64,000 nucleotides of DNA from Dorea sp. CAG:317 (GCA_000433535.1 FR892671.1:159569-223568); one strand, 5' to 3'. Shown: positions 25,837 through 38,063, numbered from the stretch's first letter. The notes: generated by a model not told the origin, from the sequence alone. Numbers and translations are program-made.

Positions 25837-26397
25837 ATGACAACAACGAACTCTATATCTTCCACGAAACGAATGGTCTGGGTTGCTTTATTTACCGCTA
25901 TCACTTGTATTTTAGCCCCTTTGTCCATCCCGATTCCCATCAGTCCTGTGCCAATCACTTTAACGAATCTGGTTCTGTTTATCAGCCTCTATATACTGTC
26001 GTGGAAAGAAGCTCTTATAAGCTATATCCTCTATCTTCTCTTAGGAATCTGCGGGCTTCCGGTATTCTCCGGCTTCTCTGGCGGAATCGGAAAACTTGCA
26101 GGTCCTACCGGAGGATATCTGGCAGGATTTATATTTTTGATTTTAATTGCCGGATTTTTTATGAAAATCTTTCCAAAGAAAAAGACTCTGACGATTCTTG
26201 GCATGGTGCTCGGAATGGCTGCCACCTATATCTTTGGAACACTGTGGCTCGCTGCTCAGATGGAGCTTTCCTTTACCGCCGCCTTATCCGTCGGAGTCTT
26301 TCCTTATTTGCTTGGAGACGCCGTCAAAATTGCCGCCGCCTCCATAGTTGGTCCGATATTACAGAACCGTCTCTTTTTTATCCGCGATAATAATTGA
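25837..26397 (+). CDS. bioY: Biotin transporter BioY (ECF S-component)
   Basis: It is 186 aa with 6 TM segments. The BioY-family pattern is present (PITLTNLVL...GGYLAGF). Confidence 0.9.
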
Positions 26398-28657
26398 TCA
26401 GACATCCTTTCAGAATAATTTCTCTCTCGGCGTCTGTCATATCACCAAGTTTAAAATGAACCTCTTTTAATTCATTTCCCACAACGTATGCCTTGATATC
26501 TGCCGCTTTCTCTTCGATTGCCCGGCGGATATCCGGCACAAATATATAATCACCGTTCTGGAAGCTCAACTTCTCATGGTCTTCTTCGGTAATAAATGGA
26601 AGCATCCCCCAGTTGATCAGGTTCGAGCGATATCTCTTTGTCGCATACTCACATGCAATATTCGCCCATCCTCCAAGAACCTTCTGACAGGATGCGGCTT
26701 GTTCTCTCGCTGAACCGTCTCCTGGTTTTACTGCAAAAATCGTACTTCCGATTCCAAGATTTCCTTCACCTGCTTCCGGGTAGGTTTCTCTTACTTTACC
26801 CATTACTTCTTTTAACTCTTCCAGCACTTCAAGAGGACACGTTCCTGCTTCGATTGCTTTCTGCGCCTTCTGAACTTCCTTTGCTCTTCCCACATAAGCC
26901 GGGTCTTTTCTGGACAATGCAAATTCTGCAAGTCCCAGTGGGTTCGAACGATAGGAGGATGTTTCTCCTGACGGGATCAGTTCGTCTGTAGTTGTTACCG
27001 GATCATGAATCTCAGACACTACTTTCAGAAGCAGATTCTCCGGAAGCGCCGGCATCTTCGGCCAGTCTTTAATGTTCGGACCAAACTTGATCTCCACAGA
27101 ATCATCTGCCACGCCTTTACTGTCAAATACTCTGTTTGCATAGATCTTCTCATCAAAATGATAGGTCTGTCCGGTGTATTCTACATCCATAGCTGTTGCC
27201 GGTGTAAGGAATCCTTTATTTGCTGCTGTTGCCGCAATTGAACGAGCATCCATAAGAGCCACAGATGCAATCTGTCCGCTCTGAAGCTTAGAACCTTCTC
27301 GGTTCGGGAAGTTACGTGTAGAGTGACGAATAGAAAAAGCTCCATTTGCCGGTGTATCCCCTGCGCCAAAACATGGTCCGCAGAATGCTGTCTTCACGAT
27401 TGTTCCTGCCTGCATAAGATCAGCCACCACTCCGTTTTTCACAAGTTCCATATAGATTGGCGTACTTGCCGGATATACACTGAATGTAAATGCATCCGAA
27501 CCGATATAATGACCTTTGATAATATCTGCTGCCGCACAAATATTTTCAAAGCCACCGCCGGCACATCCTGCAATAATTCCCTGATCCACGTATAATTTTC
27601 CATTTACAATCTTGTCCTGAAGCGAATAATCCACAGCGCCGTCAAGACTTATCAGCGCTTTCTTCTCTACGTCATGAAGCACGTCCTTTAAATTTGCATT
27701 GACTTCATCAATCGTGTATACATTAGACGGATGGAACGGCATAGCGATCATCGGTTTGATCTCACTTAAATTTACATACACAAAGCCATCGTAGTAAGCA
27801 ACTGCTCCCGGATTCAATTCTTTGTATTCTTCTACTCTTCCATGAGTCTCATAAAATTCTTTGATTGTTTCATCCGTTTTCCATATAGAAGAAAGACAGG
27901 TCGTCTCTGTTGTCATAACATCAATACCGATACGATAATCTGCACTCAGCTTATCCACACCAGGTCCGACAAATTCCATCACTTTATTATTTACATAGCC
28001 ATTTCCGAATGTCGCGCCTATAATTGCAAGAGCGATATCCTGAGGTCCTACTCCCTTCATCGGCTCACCGTCCAGATAGATTCCTACTACCTGCGGCATC
28101 TTAATATCATAAGTTTTATTTAAAAGCTGTTTTACAAGCTCCGGTCCTCCTTCGCCCATTGCCATCGTTCCCAGCGCACCATAGCGCGTATGGCTGTCCG
28201 ATCCAAGGATCATCTTGCCGCCGCCTGCAAGCATCTCACGGGCATACTGATGGATAACAGCCTGATGAGGCGGCACATAGACACCTCCGTATTTCTTTGC
28301 ACAGGTCAGTCCAAACATATGGTCATCCTCATTGATAGTTCCGCCTACCGCGCACAACGAATTGTGACAGTTGGTAAGAACATACGGAATCGGAAATTTC
28401 TCAAGTCCTGACGCTCTCGCTGTCTGAATGATACCTACGAATGTAATATCATGAGATGTCAACTTATCAAATTTAATCTGCAGTCTGTCCATATTACCGG
28501 ATGTATTATGTTCAGATAAAATATTATAAGCCATTGTTTCTTTGGCTGCTTCTTCTCTGGAAACTTTTCTTCCGGTCTTTGCCGCCACTTCTTCACAGCT
28601 TTCCACAATCTCTGTTCCATTTAACAGATACACACCTTTGTCATATAATTTCACCAT
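26378..28657 (-). CDS. Aconitase-family hydratase (aconitate hydratase-like)
   Basis: It is 759 aa. The motifs GSDSHT, CGPC-like [13 protein letters not shown] and the C-terminal swivel [10 protein letters not shown] are present. Confidence 0.8.
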
Positions 28658-28671
28658 GCCTTCTAGTCCTC

Positions 28672-29757
28672 CTATGCTTTCATATTTTTCATGTGTTCGG
28701 CTACCATCATTGCTATCTTAAATGTCATTGCTTCATCAAATACTCTGACATCAAGCCCCGTTTTCTTCTGAATCTTTTCCAGACGATACACCAGTGTATT
28801 GCGGTGGATATACAGTTGTCTGGACGTCTCAGATATATTTAGATTGTTATCAAAAAATGTATATACGGTTGTCAGTTCTTCCTCTTCGAAAATATCTGCT
28901 GCCCCGCCATGAAAAACTTCTTTCAAGAACATTTCACACAGCGATCTTGGCAGCTGATGAATCAGTCGCCCGATTCCAAGCTCATCATACGCAAGAATTC
29001 CGCGTTCTGCATAAAAGACGCGTCCGACCTCCAGCGCCACTTGCGCCTCCTGATAGGATCGAGGCACTTCTTTTAACTCCTGCACGATTGTACCATACGC
29101 TACGCGCACACTTGCCATCGCCTCCATGTTCAGCGTGTCTGTGATCACCCGGGCAATCTGCTGTGCATCCTCATACCCCTCTGATTGTTCCAGCGCTTTC
29201 ACAAGTATGACATGATGATTATCCACTGCCGTAACAAAATTCTTTCTTCCGGACGCATACAGTCCTCGCAGCGTCTCAATAATCAGATCTTCTCCTTCAT
29301 TTTTCTTCTCGATCACATATACAAGCCTTTTTTGATCTGTTGCAATTCCCATTTTATCTGCCTGATTATAAATATCCACAAGCAACAGATTGTCAAGAAG
29401 CAGATTCTGAATAAAGCGATTCTTATCCAGCTTGTCCTTGTAGGCAGTCAAAAGGCTGGTCAACTGGCTGACTCCCATTCTTCCTGCCATTTCCATATTT
29501 GCAGATTCGCCCTCAAGCGCTAACAGATAGATTGGATTTTCTTCATCAAACACAAAAAAGAACCCCTGTTTTTCCCGCAAAATCTCCAGATTCTCATCAG
29601 CATCCTGCCAGAGTTCCTGCACCTGTTTTTCACACTTCTGCATTTTCTCATGGGTCATTACAAGACAGGTTCCCTTCCTGTCCCATACAGCACAATCAAA
29701 TCCGGCAATATTCTTAATGTCCTGCACCGTTTTATGCAATACTTTATTTGATAACAT
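28672..29757 (-). CDS. PucR/CdaR-family transcriptional regulator
   Basis: The C-terminal HTH ([18 protein letters not shown]) is typical of the PucR family. The start is MLSNK, with a GGGAGG RBS 7 nt upstream. The longer ORF includes that RBS. Confidence 0.75.
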
Positions 29758-30039
29758 ACATATGCCTCCCAAATATTCACATACACGCTTATTCTAGCAC
29801 ATGAAAATAAAGCTGTCTAACATTTTAACGTGCGAAAGCAAACAATTATTCGATATCATATTCTTGATAAAGTTTCTCACACAATTCAAAATCCTGCACC
29901 GCTTTTATATCCGCGAAAAAGGAGTCTTCTTATGAGAATAAGTATAAAGAATCCATCCCCGATTATCAAGGTTTTTCGCATATATGAAATAGAGACTCAT
30001 TACCTGATGATTATTTCCTCTGATTGGACATTTTTGACA

Positions 30040-30085
30040 CAACAAAAGCGGGTATACCCACCAAGATATACCCGCTTCTTTCTAT
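30040..30085 (-). terminator. Terminator downstream of pnuC
   Basis: A 10-bp stem (agcgggtata / tatacccgct) has a 10-nt loop. It is followed on the minus strand by ttttgttgtg. Confidence 0.5.
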
Positions 30086-30092
30086 CGTTCTT

Positions 30093-30785
30093 TTATTTAT
30101 TTTCTTTATTTTTTGCAGCCAGTTTCTTCCAGTTGTAATATCCGTATATAGAGTTAAACAGATAAGCAACCCACATCACTACCATGGTGATCGCAGAAGA
30201 ATCTTTACCAATCAACAGTACCCACATCACCACAGATACAATGTTGACGATAATCCACAAAAGCCACTGTTCTGCGTAACGTGCAACCTGCATGATTAAC
30301 GCAATAACAGAGAATACCGTTGACATTGCATCAATAAGCGCAAGCTGCCCACCTAGATGCGTCAAAATCTGCCAATAGATCACGACAATTACTGCTGTTG
30401 CAACAAGAAGCAGGACAATCTGCTTTGGTGTCAGCGCTTTTCCCTCTACTTCACCACTCTCTTCGTCTTTATGTCTGGACCAGAGGTAGAAACCAACGAA
30501 ATTCATCGGAATATAATAAAATGCATTTAACATAAATTCACCGTATAAATGGTTATTAAATGTAAGATATGCGTAGATTGCTACATTGATGGTCGCAAAC
30601 ACATACGTACTTACTTTTCCTTTTGCCGCCAATACAACACCTAATATTCCTGTGATTCCACTGATTAAAGCCAGTGTATTGTCTCCCCAGATAATGCTCA
30701 GCACGATCATAATCACGGTAGATAATACAAGCCAACACTTTTCAAACATACTCCAGCCTTTAAAAAATTCTTTTACTTTACTCAT
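30093..30785 (-). CDS. pnuC: PnuC-family nucleoside/riboside transporter
   Basis: It is about 230 aa with 7-8 TM segments and has the PnuC signature (W...NxxLYGEF, WQYL-like motifs). A GAGGAAGGAAG RBS lies just upstream of the ATG (MSKVKEF). Confidence 0.85.
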   Translation of the reverse strand: MSKVKEFFKGWSMFEKCWLVLSTVIMIVLSIIWGDNTLALISGITGILGVVLAAKGKVSTYVFATINVAIYAYLTFNNHLYGEFMLNAFYYIPMNFVGFYLWSRHKDEESGEVEGKALTPKQIVLLLVATAVIVVIYWQILTHLGGQLALIDAMSTVFSVIALIMQVARYAEQWLLWIIVNIVSVVMWVLLIGKDSSAITMVVMWVAYLFNSIYGYYNWKKLAAKNKENK

Positions 30786-31686
30786 TGTTCCTTCTTCCTT
30801 CCTCAAATTCCTCTGTTGTCAATACAGGTCCTTTTACACTTACTACTTTTGCAGAAATACAGTTTGCCATCTGAATAGACTCCGCAAAACGATATCCCGC
30901 CGTCCGCATTGCAATCACCGCTCCGATATGGGAATCTCCTGCTCCGATGGTATCTACCACTTCTGCCTTTTTCGACGGAATCACATGGTGCTTTCCTTCT
31001 TCCAGAAGGTGTACCCCCTCTTTTCCCAAAGTAATCAATACGGTATTTCCTGTCCATCCATGAAGCTTTTCCGAAGCCTTCACAATCTCTTCTTCACCGG
31101 TGGATGTCACTGCCTCTAACTCATTCAAATGAATGACCGGCTTAAGCGCATACATGCGTTTTGCTTTTTCCTCAGAAATATAAGTAATCCGCGGTCCCGG
31201 AGCATAGTATACCGTCATCTCCCGGTGTTCCTCCAGGAAGTCAAGAATGGCATCTCCGCCATCTCCTTCCAGCTCATATCCACTTACGTACACGGAATCA
31301 TAGTTCTCCACATTCAGAGTCTTAAACCATTCACGTTTAAAATGGCATTCTATTCCGGGTACAGTTAAAAACGTGCGTTCTCCATCTGCTTCTACCATAC
31401 ACAGGCAGTAGCCATTATCCGAATCCGCCGAACAAATCGGACTATTATGCCCTGCTCTTTGTAATTCTTTTCGGATAAAATCTGCATACATTCCGGTTCC
31501 CACCGGTGCAAATAACGTATAGTTTGTCCCGAAATGCTTTAGTATATCTGCAACATTATATGCACATCCTCCGACCATCATGGTCTGTCCCTTCGCATAT
31601 ACATCTGTACCGGACTTTGGAATCTGATCAATCTCCATCACAATATCCAGCATTGCCGCACCAACGACTATACATCCTTTTCCCAT
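30778..31686 (-). CDS. PfkB-family carbohydrate/nucleoside kinase (ribokinase-like)
   Basis: It is 302 aa. The N-terminal GG motif (VVGAAMLD) and the C-terminal DTIGAGDSHIGA anion hole are present. Confidence 0.85.
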   Translation of the reverse strand: MGKGCIVVGAAMLDIVMEIDQIPKSGTDVYAKGQTMMVGGCAYNVADILKHFGTNYTLFAPVGTGMYADFIRKELQRAGHNSPICSADSDNGYCLCMVEADGERTFLTVPGIECHFKREWFKTLNVENYDSVYVSGYELEGDGGDAILDFLEEHREMTVYYAPGPRITYISEEKAKRMYALKPVIHLNELEAVTSTGEEEIVKASEKLHGWTGNTVLITLGKEGVHLLEEGKHHVIPSKKAEVVDTIGAGDSHIGAVIAMRTAGYRFAESIQMANCISAKVVSVKGPVLTTEEFEEGRRNNE

Positions 31687-32678
31687 GTCACTCTCCCTCT
31701 CTTCTCTATGATTGCATCCGCATAATGTTCAAAATCTACTTGGTTTGCCTTCTGGATCAAAGCAACATATTCCTGTGGAATTTTCTCCATCCCCTGCGCC
31801 GCACCACAAATGGCAGTCGCCATAGCGCCGATGGTATCTGTATCTCCGCCCAGATTTGCACAGAGAAGTGCACATTTTTTCACATCAAATCCATAATACG
31901 CAATCGCAAGTGCTGCCGGAACTGATTCCGAAGTATTCACTCCAGCCCCTACCAGATTATAGAGATTTTCCAAAAATGCAGTTTCATCATCCTTGTACTT
32001 TTCTGCCAGCTTCACTCCAAGCATCGTTCTTGCACTTAACGACGGGCTTGGGGTGGAGGCTCCTAATTCCATGGCATATTCTGTGACAGAAAGAGCGTCT
32101 TCTATCATTTTCTCACGATTTTGATACTCCATTGCCGAAGCCACTGCCATGGCAATCATAGACGCTCCGGCAATTGTAATATCACTGGTATGCGTCACGC
32201 AGGAAACTGCCGCCACATATCGGCATAATTCTTCTTTTTGCGCAGTTGTAAATAAAGTGCCGATAGGCGCGATTCTCATTGCCGCACCATTGGACACCGC
32301 CTCATCTGAAAATTCTTTTGCACTTTTCCCTTCTTGAAAAAGCTTTAAAGCAACTTTAGAAGTCGGACCAAGAATATTATTTTCAAAGGCATTCTCCTTT
32401 TCTGCCCACTTTAAGATGTATGTTGCAATACTCTGACTGTCCGGCACAAAATCTGTCTCTATCAGACTATCTAAAATTGTCAGCGCCTGACTTGTATCAT
32501 CTGTAAATTGCCCTGCCTTATATTGATAAGAAATAATATTTTCCGGACACCCATCTAAAAAATCCGTAATCACACCATAATGTTCGAGACACCGCTTTCG
32601 GCTCCACAGTTCCGGCGGCATACCCATGGCATCTCCAATCGCCATCCCGTATAGTGCTCCCATTACTTTATCTCTCAT
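31668..32678 (-). CDS. ADP-ribosylglycohydrolase-family protein
   Basis: It is 336 aa. The ARH-fold signatures GALYGMAIGDAMG and a C-terminal GGDTDTIGAMA metal site are present. Confidence 0.85.
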   Translation of the reverse strand: MRDKVMGALYGMAIGDAMGMPPELWSRKRCLEHYGVITDFLDGCPENIISYQYKAGQFTDDTSQALTILDSLIETDFVPDSQSIATYILKWAEKENAFENNILGPTSKVALKLFQEGKSAKEFSDEAVSNGAAMRIAPIGTLFTTAQKEELCRYVAAVSCVTHTSDITIAGASMIAMAVASAMEYQNREKMIEDALSVTEYAMELGASTPSPSLSARTMLGVKLAEKYKDDETAFLENLYNLVGAGVNTSESVPAALAIAYYGFDVKKCALLCANLGGDTDTIGAMATAICGAAQGMEKIPQEYVALIQKANQVDFEHYADAIIEKRGRVTWEKDV

Positions 32679-32697
32679 ATTACTACATCTCCTCTCT

Positions 32698-32789
32698 ACT
32701 TATTATAATAAGTTATTTTTATTCACTCGTCTATCCACAAAATAAACAAAATATCAGTATATTTTTTTGTTAACTTATTATAATAAGTT
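32698..32789. promoter_or_regulatory. Two copies of a perfect palindrome, ACTTATTATAATAAGT, at 32698-32713 and 32772-32789 in the divergent intergenic region
   Basis: Each copy is read directly. Each is self-complementary. They lie about 75 bp apart between the ARH-PfkB-PnuC operon and the HutC-type regulator. Confidence 0.45.
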
Positions 32790-32880
32790 GGAGAATCCAT
32801 TTGAATTTTATTACTCACTCAAGTATAATAGAATTATATGATTTAAGGGATTATCATTCCCGTGAAATGGGGACATTACT

Positions 32881-33603
32881 ATGAGACAAACACCTAAATA
32901 TGCGATGATTGAAAATGATTTTATTGAAAAAATACAATCCGGGGAACTAAAGGCCGGCGCAGAGCTTCCCAGCGAATCGGATCTCATCCAATTATACCAG
33001 GTCAGCAGAGTCACTGTTCGGCGTGCCATTGATGAATTATATCATCAGGGATATATTGAAAAAATGCAGGGAAAGCGCACTTGCGTCAAAGGAAAAGTTA
33101 AATTACAGGAACTGACTTCTATTTCCAGCTATACCGAAGAGATCATCCGCCAGGGCATGACTCCTTCCCGCCAACTTCTTGCTGCTGAACTCAGAGTTTG
33201 TACCAGCGAAGAAGCAAGTCTGCTGCATCTTCAAAAGGCTGATCCTGTATTTCATATGACAAGAATTTACTTTGCGGATGGGACTCCACTCTGCCTTACA
33301 AGCACTGTTCTGCCTTACCATTTGTTCCGCGATATTGAAACCTATGATTTTGAACAACATTCTCTTTATAAAATCATAGAAGAGAACTATCATACACAAA
33401 TTACGACTTCATCGCTCAAACTCAAAGCAGTCTCTGCTTATGGAGATATTTCCGAGCATCTCAATGTCAGTGATGATACGCCACTTCTATACTCTACAGG
33501 ATTGACCTATGGGATTAAAAATGATGAAGAAATTCCGATCGAGCTTTTCTATAACTATTATTTGACGACGCGATTTGAATATTCATTGATACAACGAAGA
33601 TAA
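32881..33603 (+). CDS. GntR-family regulator, HutC subfamily (UTRA effector domain)
   Basis: An N-terminal wHTH (LPSESDLIQLYQVSRVTVRRAIDEL) is followed by a UTRA-like C-terminal domain. Confidence 0.85.
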   Translation: MRQTPKYAMIENDFIEKIQSGELKAGAELPSESDLIQLYQVSRVTVRRAIDELYHQGYIEKMQGKRTCVKGKVKLQELTSISSYTEEIIRQGMTPSRQLLAAELRVCTSEEASLLHLQKADPVFHMTRIYFADGTPLCLTSTVLPYHLFRDIETYDFEQHSLYKIIEENYHTQITTSSLKLKAVSAYGDISEHLNVSDDTPLLYSTGLTYGIKNDEEIPIELFYNYYLTTRFEYSLIQRR

Positions 33604-33640
33604 GGGGGAGGTGCTTTCGCACCTCCCCCTTGTATCATTT
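33604..33640. terminator. Strong bidirectional terminator (GGGGGAGGTGC-tttc-GCACCTCCCCC)
   Basis: An 11-bp GC-rich perfect stem is followed by a T-rich tail. It lies between the convergent regulator and msmK. Confidence 0.7.
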
Positions 33641-35822: not shown

Positions 35823-37256
35823 TTATGCAAGCAAAATCTCTACTGCCTCTCGTAATGTTGTTACTTCTCCAACATTTCCCGGGAAAATTATATATGGGGT
35901 CATTGGGAACTTACTTTCCTTTCCAGTTTGCCATACCGGAATTCCAGGACATATTTGGCCCATGACATTTGCTTTTTTCACACGAAGTGCTTTCGTTCCT
36001 ATATCACTTGATGTAATTCCGCCTTTTGCAACCACAAAAGCCGGTGTTACCTTCAACTTTCCGACTAACGACTGAACCGCATCAGATATTTTTACTGATC
36101 TCAAAAGAGCCTCCTCCTTTGTATCATTTTCAACTGATAATAGTTTTCGCCTTGTATAAACCACTACTGTTTTTCCGTTTTCGATCAATTCTTCTTCTTT
36201 TTTGACAGTTTCAATAATTTCTTTTTCAAACGCTTTTTCATCCAATACCAAATCCGAATTAAATTCCAAGAAAACCAATCCTTCTATTTTTCTTAATTCT
36301 TCCATCTGACTGGTAGTCTTTTTTGTGTGTGAGCCAACCACAACAATTCCACCATTCTTGGATTCCTTCACCACCATTTCCTTTCGCGTAAGCAATGGTT
36401 TGTCCGAAACTCCTCCCATTACTTTCACCAATGCAGCAGCGGTACGAAACATAAAATTCTTTCCCCTTGACATAGCCCGATATAACGCTATAGTAAATAC
36501 TTTCAAATCGTAATAATCTACCGCATTTACCACAACTTTTCCAAATCCCTGTACTTTCATCAGTTTTTCCATAATTCTATCAATCTGTTGTTCTCGCAGT
36601 TCTTTCAAAGTGATATATGTGACACTCTTCGCCGGATACTGTCCTTTTGTTTTTTCTTCAATATACTCACACAAATCAGAGGACTGATATCCAAATGTTT
36701 TATCTTTTGCAAATTCTGTCTGCCCTGCTGGAATAAGCTGATTTCCAGTTTTCACATAGTGAATATTTTCTATCGTATAACGACCGCCTTCCTTAAAAAA
36801 CGGACATATTATCTCTCCATCCACTCTTTTCGTTCCATCTGCCTCAAATCCTTCACGAAGCAACTCTGTTTCCAATGGATAGTGTCCTCTCAATGTAGAG
36901 TCGCCTCGGCTAATAATTAGATATTCTTTCCCGGTTTTTTTCGAGATTTTATCTATACGCTCAATAATTTCTTTGTGGCATAAAGTAGTCTGTTCTATCG
37001 TAAAACCTCTGGAATTCGTCAAAATATAAAACATTCGCGTCTTTTCTTCAAAACCACTTCTTATACTTTCTTCAGACCAGTCTGTATAAACAGAAACATC
37101 ATGAACCGTTTGTACTCCTGTTGGATCATCATCTAATACAATTATTTTTTTATGATTCTTTTCTATTTCGTCTTTTAATTCTTTTTCTATTTCTTTTTCA
37201 TTCTGCACAGTGAACTGATTTAAAATCTGTATATCCAAATTCTTTAACTCACTCAT
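35823..37256 (-). CDS. Four-carbon acid-sugar kinase family protein (DUF1537/DUF1357, OtnK-like)
   Basis: It is 477 aa. The N-terminal motif IVLDDDPTGVQT is DxxTG-like and typical of the family. Confidence 0.75.
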   Translation of the reverse strand: MSELKNLDIQILNQFTVQNEKEIEKELKDEIEKNHKKIIVLDDDPTGVQTVHDVSVYTDWSEESIRSGFEEKTRMFYILTNSRGFTIEQTTLCHKEIIERIDKISKKTGKEYLIISRGDSTLRGHYPLETELLREGFEADGTKRVDGEIICPFFKEGGRYTIENIHYVKTGNQLIPAGQTEFAKDKTFGYQSSDLCEYIEEKTKGQYPAKSVTYITLKELREQQIDRIMEKLMKVQGFGKVVVNAVDYYDLKVFTIALYRAMSRGKNFMFRTAAALVKVMGGVSDKPLLTRKEMVVKESKNGGIVVVGSHTKKTTSQMEELRKIEGLVFLEFNSDLVLDEKAFEKEIIETVKKEEELIENGKTVVVYTRRKLLSVENDTKEEALLRSVKISDAVQSLVGKLKVTPAFVVAKGGITSSDIGTKALRVKKANVMGQICPGIPVWQTGKESKFPMTPYIIFPGNVGEVTTLREAVEILLA

Positions 37257-37265
37257 AGCTTCCTC

Positions 37266-38063
37266 CTATATATTAAGCATTTTTCTTGCTTCTTGCGGTG
37301 TCATTGGTTCCTTATCCATTGCCTTTAACAATCGCACCGTCTTCTCAACCAATGCCACATTATTATCTACTTGCGTCATCGGATCCAAATAATTACTATC
37401 CTCAAATCCAATACGCACCGTTTTCGCACCAAGCCCCAGAGCTCCTGCAATAATACCAAAATCTCGCCTATTAGCATGTGTAATTCCCCATATTGTATCT
37501 TTTGGAATGAAATTCACCATAGCTGCTAATGCTTCCGGAGTAGCCGGGGCTTCCCCTTTATGTCCCAAAACCACACTAAATAAAATAGGATTCTTCATAG
37601 GAAATTCTTTTCTCAATTCCTGTACTATATAAGTATGACCTATTTCAAAAACCTCTATTTCTGGCGTTTTCCCTGTCTTTATAATTTCATTTACGCAATA
37701 TTTTACTTCTGGAATAGGGTTACAATATACAGAATCTCCAAGATTTGTAGAGCCAACATTCAATGAACATGCTTCAATTTTATCATAGTAGAGCGGCGCA
37801 CATCTTTCTTCTATCGTCAAATTAGATACGCCTCCCGTAGATGCCTGAATTACAATATCTGATTGCTCTCTGATTCTTTCCACAGTCTCCTTCAGAACAC
37901 TCAAATCCGAAGTCAGATTTCCTTTTTTATCTCTTACATGTAAATGTACCATAGCTGCACCTGCTTCAGCACATGCTATTACATCTTGTGCAATTTTTTT
38001 TGGATTAATATCATGATTTGTTGCACTGACTGGTGCTACAGAAATTAAAATTTTCTCTGCCAT
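37266..38063 (-). CDS. BKACE-family beta-keto-acid cleavage enzyme (3-keto-5-aminohexanoate cleavage enzyme-like, DUF849)
   Basis: It is 265 aa with a TIM-barrel. His residues at HLHVRD are typical of Kce-like enzymes. Confidence 0.8.
   Translation of the reverse strand: MAEKILISVAPVSATNHDINPKKIAQDVIACAEAGAAMVHLHVRDKKGNLTSDLSVLKETVERIREQSDIVIQASTGGVSNLTIEERCAPLYYDKIEACSLNVGSTNLGDSVYCNPIPEVKYCVNEIIKTGKTPEIEVFEIGHTYIVQELRKEFPMKNPILFSVVLGHKGEAPATPEALAAMVNFIPKDTIWGITHANRRDFGIIAGALGLGAKTVRIGFEDSNYLDPMTQVDNNVALVEKTVRLLKAMDKEPMTPQEARKMLNI

Follow-up and report, generated by a model that had tools for sequence, protein, structure and literature searches.

A PnuC-based version of the yegTUV gene set in Dorea sp. 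CAG:317, predicted to take up and break down a small ribofuranosyl compound

The 64,000-nucleotide stretch of Dorea sp. CAG:317 DNA analysed here (GCA_000433535.1 FR892671.1:159569-223568; hereafter the window) carries, at positions 30093-33603, three minus-strand genes under a divergently transcribed regulator. The gene nearest the regulator encodes a 336-aa hydrolase of the ADP-ribosylglycohydrolase (ARH) fold (31668-32678 (-); PF03747 ADP_ribosyl_GH, E 3e-63). It is followed by a gene for a 302-aa PfkB kinase (30778-31686 (-); PF00294 PfkB, E 1e-42) and by a pnuC-type transporter gene (30093-30806 (-) as the longest open reading frame (ORF), 237 aa; PF04973 NMN_transporter, E 4e-49; TIGR01528). 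The regulator gene (32881-33603 (+)) encodes a 240-aa HutC-subfamily member of the GntR family that combines a GntR HTH with a UTRA effector domain. All four proteins score far over the Pfam thresholds. The initial annotation of this locus had given the ORF positions and the divergent arrangement exactly, and its four family assignments are correct by Pfam and NCBIfam.

The start codon of the PfkB gene, an ATG preceded by the Shine-Dalgarno sequence GAGGGAGAG, lies inside the ARH gene, giving a 19-nt overlap with the ARH stop. The true pnuC start is most likely the ATG at 30785, which follows GAAGGAAGAAGGAA, would give a protein of 230 aa and overlaps the PfkB stop by 8 nt. The 237-aa version begins at a TTG (30806), which is probably too far upstream to serve as the start. 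With their overlapping reading frames, the ARH, PfkB and pnuC genes form a translationally coupled operon. An intrinsic terminator for this operon is predicted at 30039-30077 (-), with a 10-bp perfect core stem (AGCGGGTATA/TATACCCGCT, 30048-30077) followed by UUUUGUUGU. The hairpin and U-run stand 16 nt past the pnuC stop, with a folding free energy of -28.5 kcal/mol (z -7.2), a value equalled by 0 of 200 shuffles.

Within the 202-bp spacer between the ARH and regulator genes, the 16-bp palindrome ACTTATTATAATAAGT occurs twice without mismatch, at a distance of 75 bp, which confirms as real the palindromes first described within 32698-32789. The proximal copy (32698-32713) precedes the ARH start codon by 20 nt. 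The distal copy (32773-32788) contains the -10 hexamer of a predicted minus-strand operon promoter (TTCAAA at 32805-32800, a 17-nt spacer and TATAAT ending at 32777). Back to back with this promoter, and outside both palindromes, is a promoter-like site for the regulator (32801-32829 (+); TTGAAT-17-TATAAT, a match of 10/12 to consensus only). At two mismatches or fewer, the spacer copies are the sole matches to ACTTATTATAATAAGT in the window, where 0.05 would be expected. The palindrome recurs, with 0-1 mismatch, in around 20 orthologues of the locus in other Lachnospiraceae that share the divergent regulator; it stands there approximately 34 nt upstream of the ARH start, in many cases with another copy 75-110 nt upstream of the first. 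Such a phylogenetic footprint favours reading the ACTTATTATAATAAGT palindromes as a candidate operator. The HutC regulator is the predicted repressor of the operon. In the locus of uncultured Dorea UMGS566, which is 99% identical, each palindrome copy has one mismatch (ACTTATTATAACAAGT and ACTTATTATAATAAGC) relative to the perfect copies of the window; operator half-sites therefore differ between near-identical strains.

What had been proposed as an analogy to E. coli yegTUV proved to be true orthology for both enzymes. The Dorea ARH and YegU share 44% identity in a 326-aa alignment that covers the full length (E 4e-93) and have the same NCBIfam match profile; the kinase is 35% identical to YegV (E 8e-59, 179 bits). 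In both organisms the two genes are adjacent and share an operon with an importer. The E. coli K-12 layout is yegT-yegU-yegV with yegW adjoining, and Dorea also has a neighbouring HutC-type GntR regulator. The two arrangements differ in gene order (ARH-kinase-transporter in Dorea, transporter-ARH-kinase in E. coli) and in the placement of the regulator, which is divergent and upstream in Dorea whereas YegW is convergent and downstream. They also differ in the importer, a seven-transmembrane (TM) PnuC facilitator in Dorea as opposed to the 12-TM, H+-coupled NHS-family member YegT of the major facilitator superfamily (MFS) in E. coli, bearing out the suggestion that PnuC stands in place of an MFS permease. 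YegT scores 655 bits against the nucleoside permease model TIGR00889. According to its 2025 crystal structure, for which no substrate was named, YegT has not kept the residues by which NupG binds uridine (PMC11979927).

The likeness to yegTUV probably extends to regulation, which is further than the initial annotation had taken it. YegW, also called GgaR, is a single-target HutC-type repressor of yegTUV, with approximately 30-fold derepression in the mutant (PMC10819704). The Dorea regulator is 24% identical to it (E 8e-20). A palindrome similar to that of Dorea was sought upstream of E. coli yegT and was not found. The gene set is a known, uncharacterised cluster (yegTUV-yegW), of which the PnuC-based version is a new transporter variant and not a new kind of system. 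A full-text search, mostly without subscription journals, returned no paper on the function of YegU, YegV or an ARH-PfkB-PnuC cluster, and none describing the PnuC-based version.

A one-genome-per-species scan yielded at least 567 loci with a YegU relative, and the best 80 of these were analysed for neighbourhood. The genes co-occur well beyond one genome: PfkB is adjacent to the ARH in 77 of the 80, and in the PnuC-type loci the two are mostly contiguous or overlapping, while PnuC comes after the kinase in 48. These PnuC-type loci include Lachnospiraceae, Clostridium, Romboutsia, Epulopiscium, Oscillospiraceae, Veillonella, Brevinema, Lonepinella and Pasteurella. The importer is an NCS1 permease (PF02133) in 27 of the 80, encoded between ARH and kinase in nearly every case; among these are loci of Paenibacillus, Bacillus and relatives, Lactobacillaceae, Vagococcus, C. 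ljungdahlii/ragsdalei and Selenomonas. In one locus of an uncultured bacterium (L038, 3383-7981), which has neither PnuC nor NCS1, two ABC sugar-type permease genes (BPD_transp_1) precede ARH-PfkB, making ABC permeases, at 1 of 80 loci, a fourth importer type for the pair. No YegT-like ORF occurs in the 80 loci at E<1e-6. All four importer types come from families that import nucleosides, nucleobases, vitamins or sugars.

Clustering of all ORFs within 5 kb in the same 80 loci identified ARH, PfkB, GntR, PnuC and NCS1 as the only conserved genes. Other recurrent clusters were rejected as conserved enzymes, being antisense shadow ORFs or lineage-specific synteny (for example, the MsmK-like ATPase). 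Given that no further conserved enzyme is present, the products must feed directly into central metabolism. The invariant core of the system is the ARH and the kinase, supplied by interchangeable small-molecule importers. NCBIfam lacks models specific to YegU, to YegV or to the NCS1 partner. Of the 80 loci, 55 have a GntR/HutC gene as a neighbour. Upstream of the operon in 19 GntR-less loci, no riboswitch was detected with Rfam at the gathering threshold; the Rfam matches in these loci were an unrelated cobalamin riboswitch 7 kb off in L032, a CRISPR array and a tRNA. The upstream proteins of approximately 280 aa in GntR-less loci are mutually unrelated (AraC, OTCase, PurA, MBL, transposase and ABC permeases).

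Several individual loci have features of their own. The Lachnospiraceae metagenome-assembled genome UMGS1251 contains two complete GntR-ARH-PfkB-PnuC modules, L004 (URQQ01000104.1) and L019 (URQQ01000031.1), whose ARHs are 86% and 67-68% identical and whose PnuCs are 91% and 52% identical to those of the window, with the palindrome upstream in both. These paralogous modules suggest two related but distinct substrates. In L032 (6166-7821), from Oscillospiraceae, a D-lyxose isomerase gene (PF07385) is directly upstream of ARH-PfkB-PnuC, as is a second PfkB-type kinase gene detected by BLAST clustering; the cobalamin riboswitch mentioned above is on the other strand. In Pasteurella sp. PK-2025 (L078, 11594-13779) the ARH-PfkB-PnuC operon is flanked on one side by a Cas_NE0113-family gene and on the other by a CRISPR array of approximately 30 repeats (Rfam CRISPR-DR54).

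The Dorea ARH scores 214.8 bits against PF03747 (cutoff 26.2) and falls far below the cutoffs of the NCBIfam models for DraG (100.7 against 337) and Tri1 (83.6 against 490). The di-metal ligands and Glu flap, whose possible loss had been raised at the outset, are present and invariant across 82 sequences including YegU (E23, T59-D60-D61-T62 and D279-T280-D281-T282). An AlphaFold2 (AF2) model of the protein is all-alpha (pLDDT 87.8), with the uncharacterised MJ1187 (1T5J) as its best PDB match (TM-score 0.77/0.85), followed by Tri1, ARH3 and DraG at approximately 0.7. E121, the adenine-contacting glutamate of the ExxA motif in DraG, is not conserved; it aligns to D125 in the Dorea ARH, within the sole low-confidence segment of the AF2 model (loop 124-133), and to N in YegU. 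The region of DraG Tyr212 finds no alignment. Because these adenine-holding residues are either not conserved or unaligned, the substrate is probably a ribosyl compound other than ADP-ribose. In ARH3 the adenosine part of ADP-ribose is recognised by F143 and Y149; the position ahead of the NG(A)AMR motif, which would correspond to Y149, is S/T in the Dorea ARH. In all characterised ARH substrates the ribose that is cleaved is phosphorylated at its 5'' carbon. Catalysis by ARHs needs both metals and the cis 2''/3''-hydroxyls of the ribose, and those enzymes that have been characterised act selectively on alpha-1'' linkages (Rack et al. review, PMC7050489). We predict that the Dorea ARH is a glycosidase of a phosphorylated riboside.

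The kinase scores 113.1 bits against the ribokinase model TIGR02152 (cutoff 299.65), 83.5 against PRK11142 (cutoff 341) and 34.7 against the PsuK model NF007355 (cutoff 540), and matches E. coli RbsK at 55 bits and the Salmonella kinase STM4066 at 38 bits. The invariant residues of 77 family members (D14, G39-G40, N44 and GAGD251) correspond to RbsK D16, G41-G42, N46 and D255. In all 77 sequences RbsK N14 has given way to M/I/V/F and K43 to C/S, and there is no conservation at E143. The family has invariants of its own, DNG, GERxF and W120, that are common to YegV. A plain ribokinase, an identity that the initial annotation had left standing as a possibility, is rejected by the sub-cutoff TIGR02152 score and by the family-wide replacement of N14 and K43. 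In the RbsK structure, the residues kept here bind the 2'/3'-hydroxyls and O5, and the lost ones lie near O1/O4, on the C1 side. This pattern fits a C1-substituted ribofuranoside better than free ribose, and the enzyme is predicted to be a riboside 5'-kinase.

The Dorea PnuC scores 148.9 bits against TIGR01528 (cutoff 42.45) and is 40% identical (E 2.7e-52) to the N. mucosa PnuC whose structure was solved with nicotinamide riboside (NR) bound (4QTN). It keeps the WxxWxxxN motif of TM6 (W181, W184 and N188), which has been described as binding ligand in PnuC (PMC5749112). Comparison of 49 ARH-linked sequences with seven canonical NR PnuCs showed 34 of 36 strongly conserved columns to be identical, including Q180, W181, W184 and N188, and the two groups differ consistently only at two positions, which adjoin the KGK motif. 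The canonical NR PnuCs nevertheless form their own clade, with 46-73% mutual identity across phyla, whereas ARH-linked PnuCs are 26-44% identical to them; the Pasteurellaceae ARH-linked copies reach 26-31% identity to the Neisseria, Listeria and Pasteurellaceae NR PnuCs compared. In a crude neighbour-joining tree the canonical clade, outside which the Dorea PnuC falls, branches beside the Dorea subgroup. The three canonical contexts checked were different from that of Dorea: the N. mucosa gene is not in an ARH/PfkB cluster, that of Basfia stands alone and that of Listeria is beside NadR. No NAD genes were found in the flanks of the Dorea operon. Given the separate canonical clade and these contexts, we read the ARH-linked PnuCs as a probable sister subfamily for a riboside that resembles NR without necessarily being NR. 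Since PnuC keeps essentially all residues conserved in the NR transporters, an NR-like N-riboside would be our leading guess for the substrate, though our confidence in any particular substrate is low.

Characterised systems offer partial parallels. In the pseudouridine route, PsuT imports the nucleoside, the PfkB-family kinase PsuK (YeiC) phosphorylates it at the 5' position and PsuG (YeiN) cleaves the resulting pseudouridine monophosphate (Psi-MP) to ribose-5-phosphate and base. The logic is that proposed here for Dorea, in a comparison of workings only: PsuG and the ARH are glycosidases of unrelated folds, and the Dorea kinase is not a PsuK orthologue. NR salvage by PnuC and NadR likewise pairs a PnuC facilitator with a cytoplasmic kinase able to trap the riboside, but the NadR kinase is a P-loop RNK domain whereas that of Dorea is PfkB-type, and Dorea adds a hydrolase. 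The same three-part architecture is found in Salmonella STM4065-STM4066-STM4067 (permease, kinase and ARH-family protein), beside which presumably lies a GntR repressor gene, STM4068. According to PMC3161100, which cites Dougherty & Downs 2003, the PfkB protein STM4066 phosphorylates aminoimidazole riboside (AIRs) and not ribose. STM4066 (PDB 1TYY) was rejected as an orthologue of the Dorea kinase (E 8e-9), and because the kinases are so distantly related we regard STM4065-4067 as a parallel module. In the rus polysaccharide utilisation loci of Bacteroidetes, ARH genes stand beside genuine PfkB ribokinases and a ribose permease (bioRxiv 10.1101/574913). Like the Dorea operon, these loci link ARH genes to PfkB kinases and a permease in gut bacteria and concern ribose-containing nutrients; unlike it, they are SusC/D-based, encode true ribokinases and a ribose permease, respond to free ribose and have no PnuC or HutC regulator.

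These data allow us to propose a pathway. That the locus is an operon for uptake and degradation or salvage of a riboside-type compound, orthologous to yegUV, we hold with good confidence. The fuller description, of a HutC-repressed operon for uptake and breakdown (or base salvage) of a small ribofuranosyl compound that acts kinase-first as the Firmicute PnuC version of yegTUV/yegW, is one that we favour by a modest degree. Without substrate, the HutC regulator would occupy both ACTTATTATAATAAGT palindromes, one over the operon -10 box and the other in the leader. PnuC would admit the riboside by diffusion, and the YegV-type PfkB kinase would phosphorylate its 5'-OH and so trap it. The two-metal centre of the YegU-type ARH would then act on the cis 2',3'-diol and cut the bond at C1', producing ribose-5-phosphate, which would pass to the pentose-phosphate pathway, and the aglycone. 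The phosphorylated intermediate would be the likely inducer that releases the HutC repressor. The gene identities, the orthology to YegU and YegV, the operon structure and the conservation of catalytic residues, operator and gene set (across phyla, with exchange of the transporter) are established, whereas the riboside nature of the substrate, the sequence of kinase and hydrolase, the products and the inducer are inferred.

The initial annotation had placed hydrolysis before phosphorylation. That order found no support, and phosphorylation as the opening step is favoured on three counts. Transport by Pnu proteins is facilitated diffusion, and their substrates accumulate through the action of co-located kinases (PMC5749112); in the kinase, the side of the pocket that faces C1 is altered; and the characterised ARH substrates bear the 5'' phosphate on the cleaved ribose. 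The same order is favoured by the translational coupling of ARH and kinase, which co-occur in 96% of loci, and by the phosphorylation of a riboside, AIRs, by the Salmonella PfkB counterpart (PMC3161100). On these grounds the kinase probably acts before the hydrolase, though not by a wide measure of certainty.

The reverse order would amount to ribose scavenging, in which the ARH splits the imported riboside to free ribose and aglycone and the PfkB enzyme is a dedicated ribokinase. We consider this unlikely, if well worth weighing. TIGR02152 is the best NCBIfam match of the kinase (113 bits), ribokinases are its closest solved relatives, and irreversible hydrolysis could also pull substrate through a facilitator; the rus loci combine ARH genes with true ribokinases and a ribose permease (bioRxiv 10.1101/574913). 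The match to TIGR02152 is, however, far under the ribokinase cutoff, and while the 2'/3'-OH and catalytic residues of RbsK are conserved, N14, K43 and E143 are not. Retention of the kinase in 77 of 80 loci, coupled to the ARH, would also be at odds with a ribokinase role given that most bacteria have rbsK. Furthermore, it is established for ARHs that the known substrates all have the 5'' phosphate on the cleaved ribose (PMC7050489).

A second alternative, which is a special case of the pathway proposed above, is a route for NR or nicotinate riboside. PnuC would import NR, the PfkB enzyme would be a non-NadR NR kinase producing nicotinamide mononucleotide (NMN), and the ARH would be an NMN glycohydrolase or NR hydrolase, yielding nicotinamide for PncA/PncB salvage and ribose-5-phosphate. 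Consistent with this, the transporter scores above the cutoff of the curated PnuC model, has a strong match in the NR-bound structure from N. mucosa, shares 34 of 36 conserved columns with canonical NR PnuCs and belongs to a subgroup beside which their clade branches. Set against this are the 26-44% identity of ARH-linked to canonical PnuCs, with paralogue-like Pasteurellaceae copies at 26-31%, and the three canonical contexts, where PnuC is alone or beside NadR and never with ARH/PfkB. E. coli keeps yegTUV despite having pnuC-nadR, and NR and NMN are beta-ribosides whereas characterised ARHs are alpha-selective. NR itself is therefore an improbable substrate in our view.

For E. coli, a role in ADP-glucose and glycogen metabolism has been proposed for GgaR and yegTUV; on this view ADP-glucose or a similar nucleotide sugar would be the substrate of the enzymes, and their action would modulate glycogen accumulation. 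In gel shifts GgaR came off the yegT promoter with ADP-glucose but with neither glucose nor ADP, and glycogen reached higher levels in a ggaR mutant, yet the authors themselves called the basis ambiguous (PMC10819704). ADP-glucose is made intracellularly and, judging from the substrates of the families, cannot cross PnuC, NCS1 or NHS transporters, yet the module always has a transporter. ARH chemistry requires a ribose cis-diol at the scissile carbon, which glucose does not have, and glg genes are linked in 0 of 80 loci. For Dorea we consider this role very improbable. That the ARH is a DraG/ARH1-like eraser of protein ADP-ribosylation with functionally unrelated neighbours is scarcely credible, since its PF03747 membership, full di-metal site and weak DraG and Tri1 matches are set against scores far under both cutoffs, non-conserved DraG adenine-binding residues, the lack of ADP-ribosyltransferase or nitrogenase genes among nearby genes of the window, and strict linkage, in overlapping frames, to a kinase and importer in 77 of 80 species.

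Some observations sit uneasily with the kinase-first riboside operon that we favour. The literature searched, outside which most subscription journals fall, names no substrate for any YegU/YegV-type protein. ARHs are alpha-1''-selective (PMC7050489) whereas ordinary nucleosides and NR are beta, a mismatch that is unexplained for an NR-like substrate. The ARHs and genuine ribokinases of the rus loci fit a hydrolase-then-ribokinase order (bioRxiv 10.1101/574913), and the sole reported effector of GgaR is ADP-glucose and not a riboside 5'-phosphate (PMC10819704). Orthology of the regulator to YegW is uncertain because of its low identity, and the trapping argument is confined to the PnuC version because the H+- or cation-coupled importers of other variants need no trapping.

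Weighing these points, we favour the kinase-first riboside operon, and advance a broader proposal more tentatively: YegU-type ARHs may be a new class of small-molecule glycosidase that acts on the 5'-phosphate of an imported NR-like riboside, possibly cationic or alpha-linked, as opposed to erasers of ADP-ribosylation, and YegV may be the kinase committed to 5'-phosphorylation of that riboside. At its most specific, the proposal would make the YegU-type enzyme the NMN nucleosidase (EC 3.2.2.14), an orphan activity.

A terminator-like hairpin with a 15-bp stem (33600-33633), able to act in both directions, lies between the regulator gene and a convergent gene for an MsmK-like ABC ATPase. The flanking genes are unrelated and encode BioY, an aconitase-family protein, a PucR regulator and the MsmK-like ABC ATPase, together with an RsmI-type methylase, a DUF1537-type kinase and a BKACE enzyme. 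At 26378-29772 the 759-aa aconitase-family protein adjoins the PucR-type regulator (GGDEF_2 and HTH_30); its Pfam match spans residues 45-475, and its C-terminal 280 aa have no Pfam match at E<1e-5. At 35823-38063 (-), downstream of the 30093-33603 locus, a gene for a DUF1537-type (SBD_N/NBD_C) four-carbon acid-sugar kinase adjoins the gene for BKACE (beta-keto acid cleavage enzyme), forming a small catabolic pair unrelated to it. In keeping with a Dorea origin of the window, its ARH is 99% identical to that of uncultured Dorea UMGS566 and 96% identical to that of D. phocaeensis.

E. coli yegTUV is a long-standing orphan gene set for which there is a YegT structure and a characterised repressor, GgaR, but no substrate. 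The YegU/YegV pair is conserved across Firmicutes, Pasteurellaceae, Negativicutes and a spirochaete, with the importer exchanged among PnuC, NCS1, ABC and NHS types, and this exchange restricts the likely substrates to small ribosyl compounds that can be transported. From the PnuC version, the substrate would be one close to NR, trapped by the kinase before cleavage by the hydrolase, and the outcome is a short, testable list of candidates for de-orphaning the yegTUV module. If this reading is true, E. coli yegTUV would acquire a function and the ARH superfamily a catabolic or salvage role, extending the fold from signalling, where it removes ADP-ribosylation, to nutrient metabolism in the abundant Lachnospiraceae of the gut.

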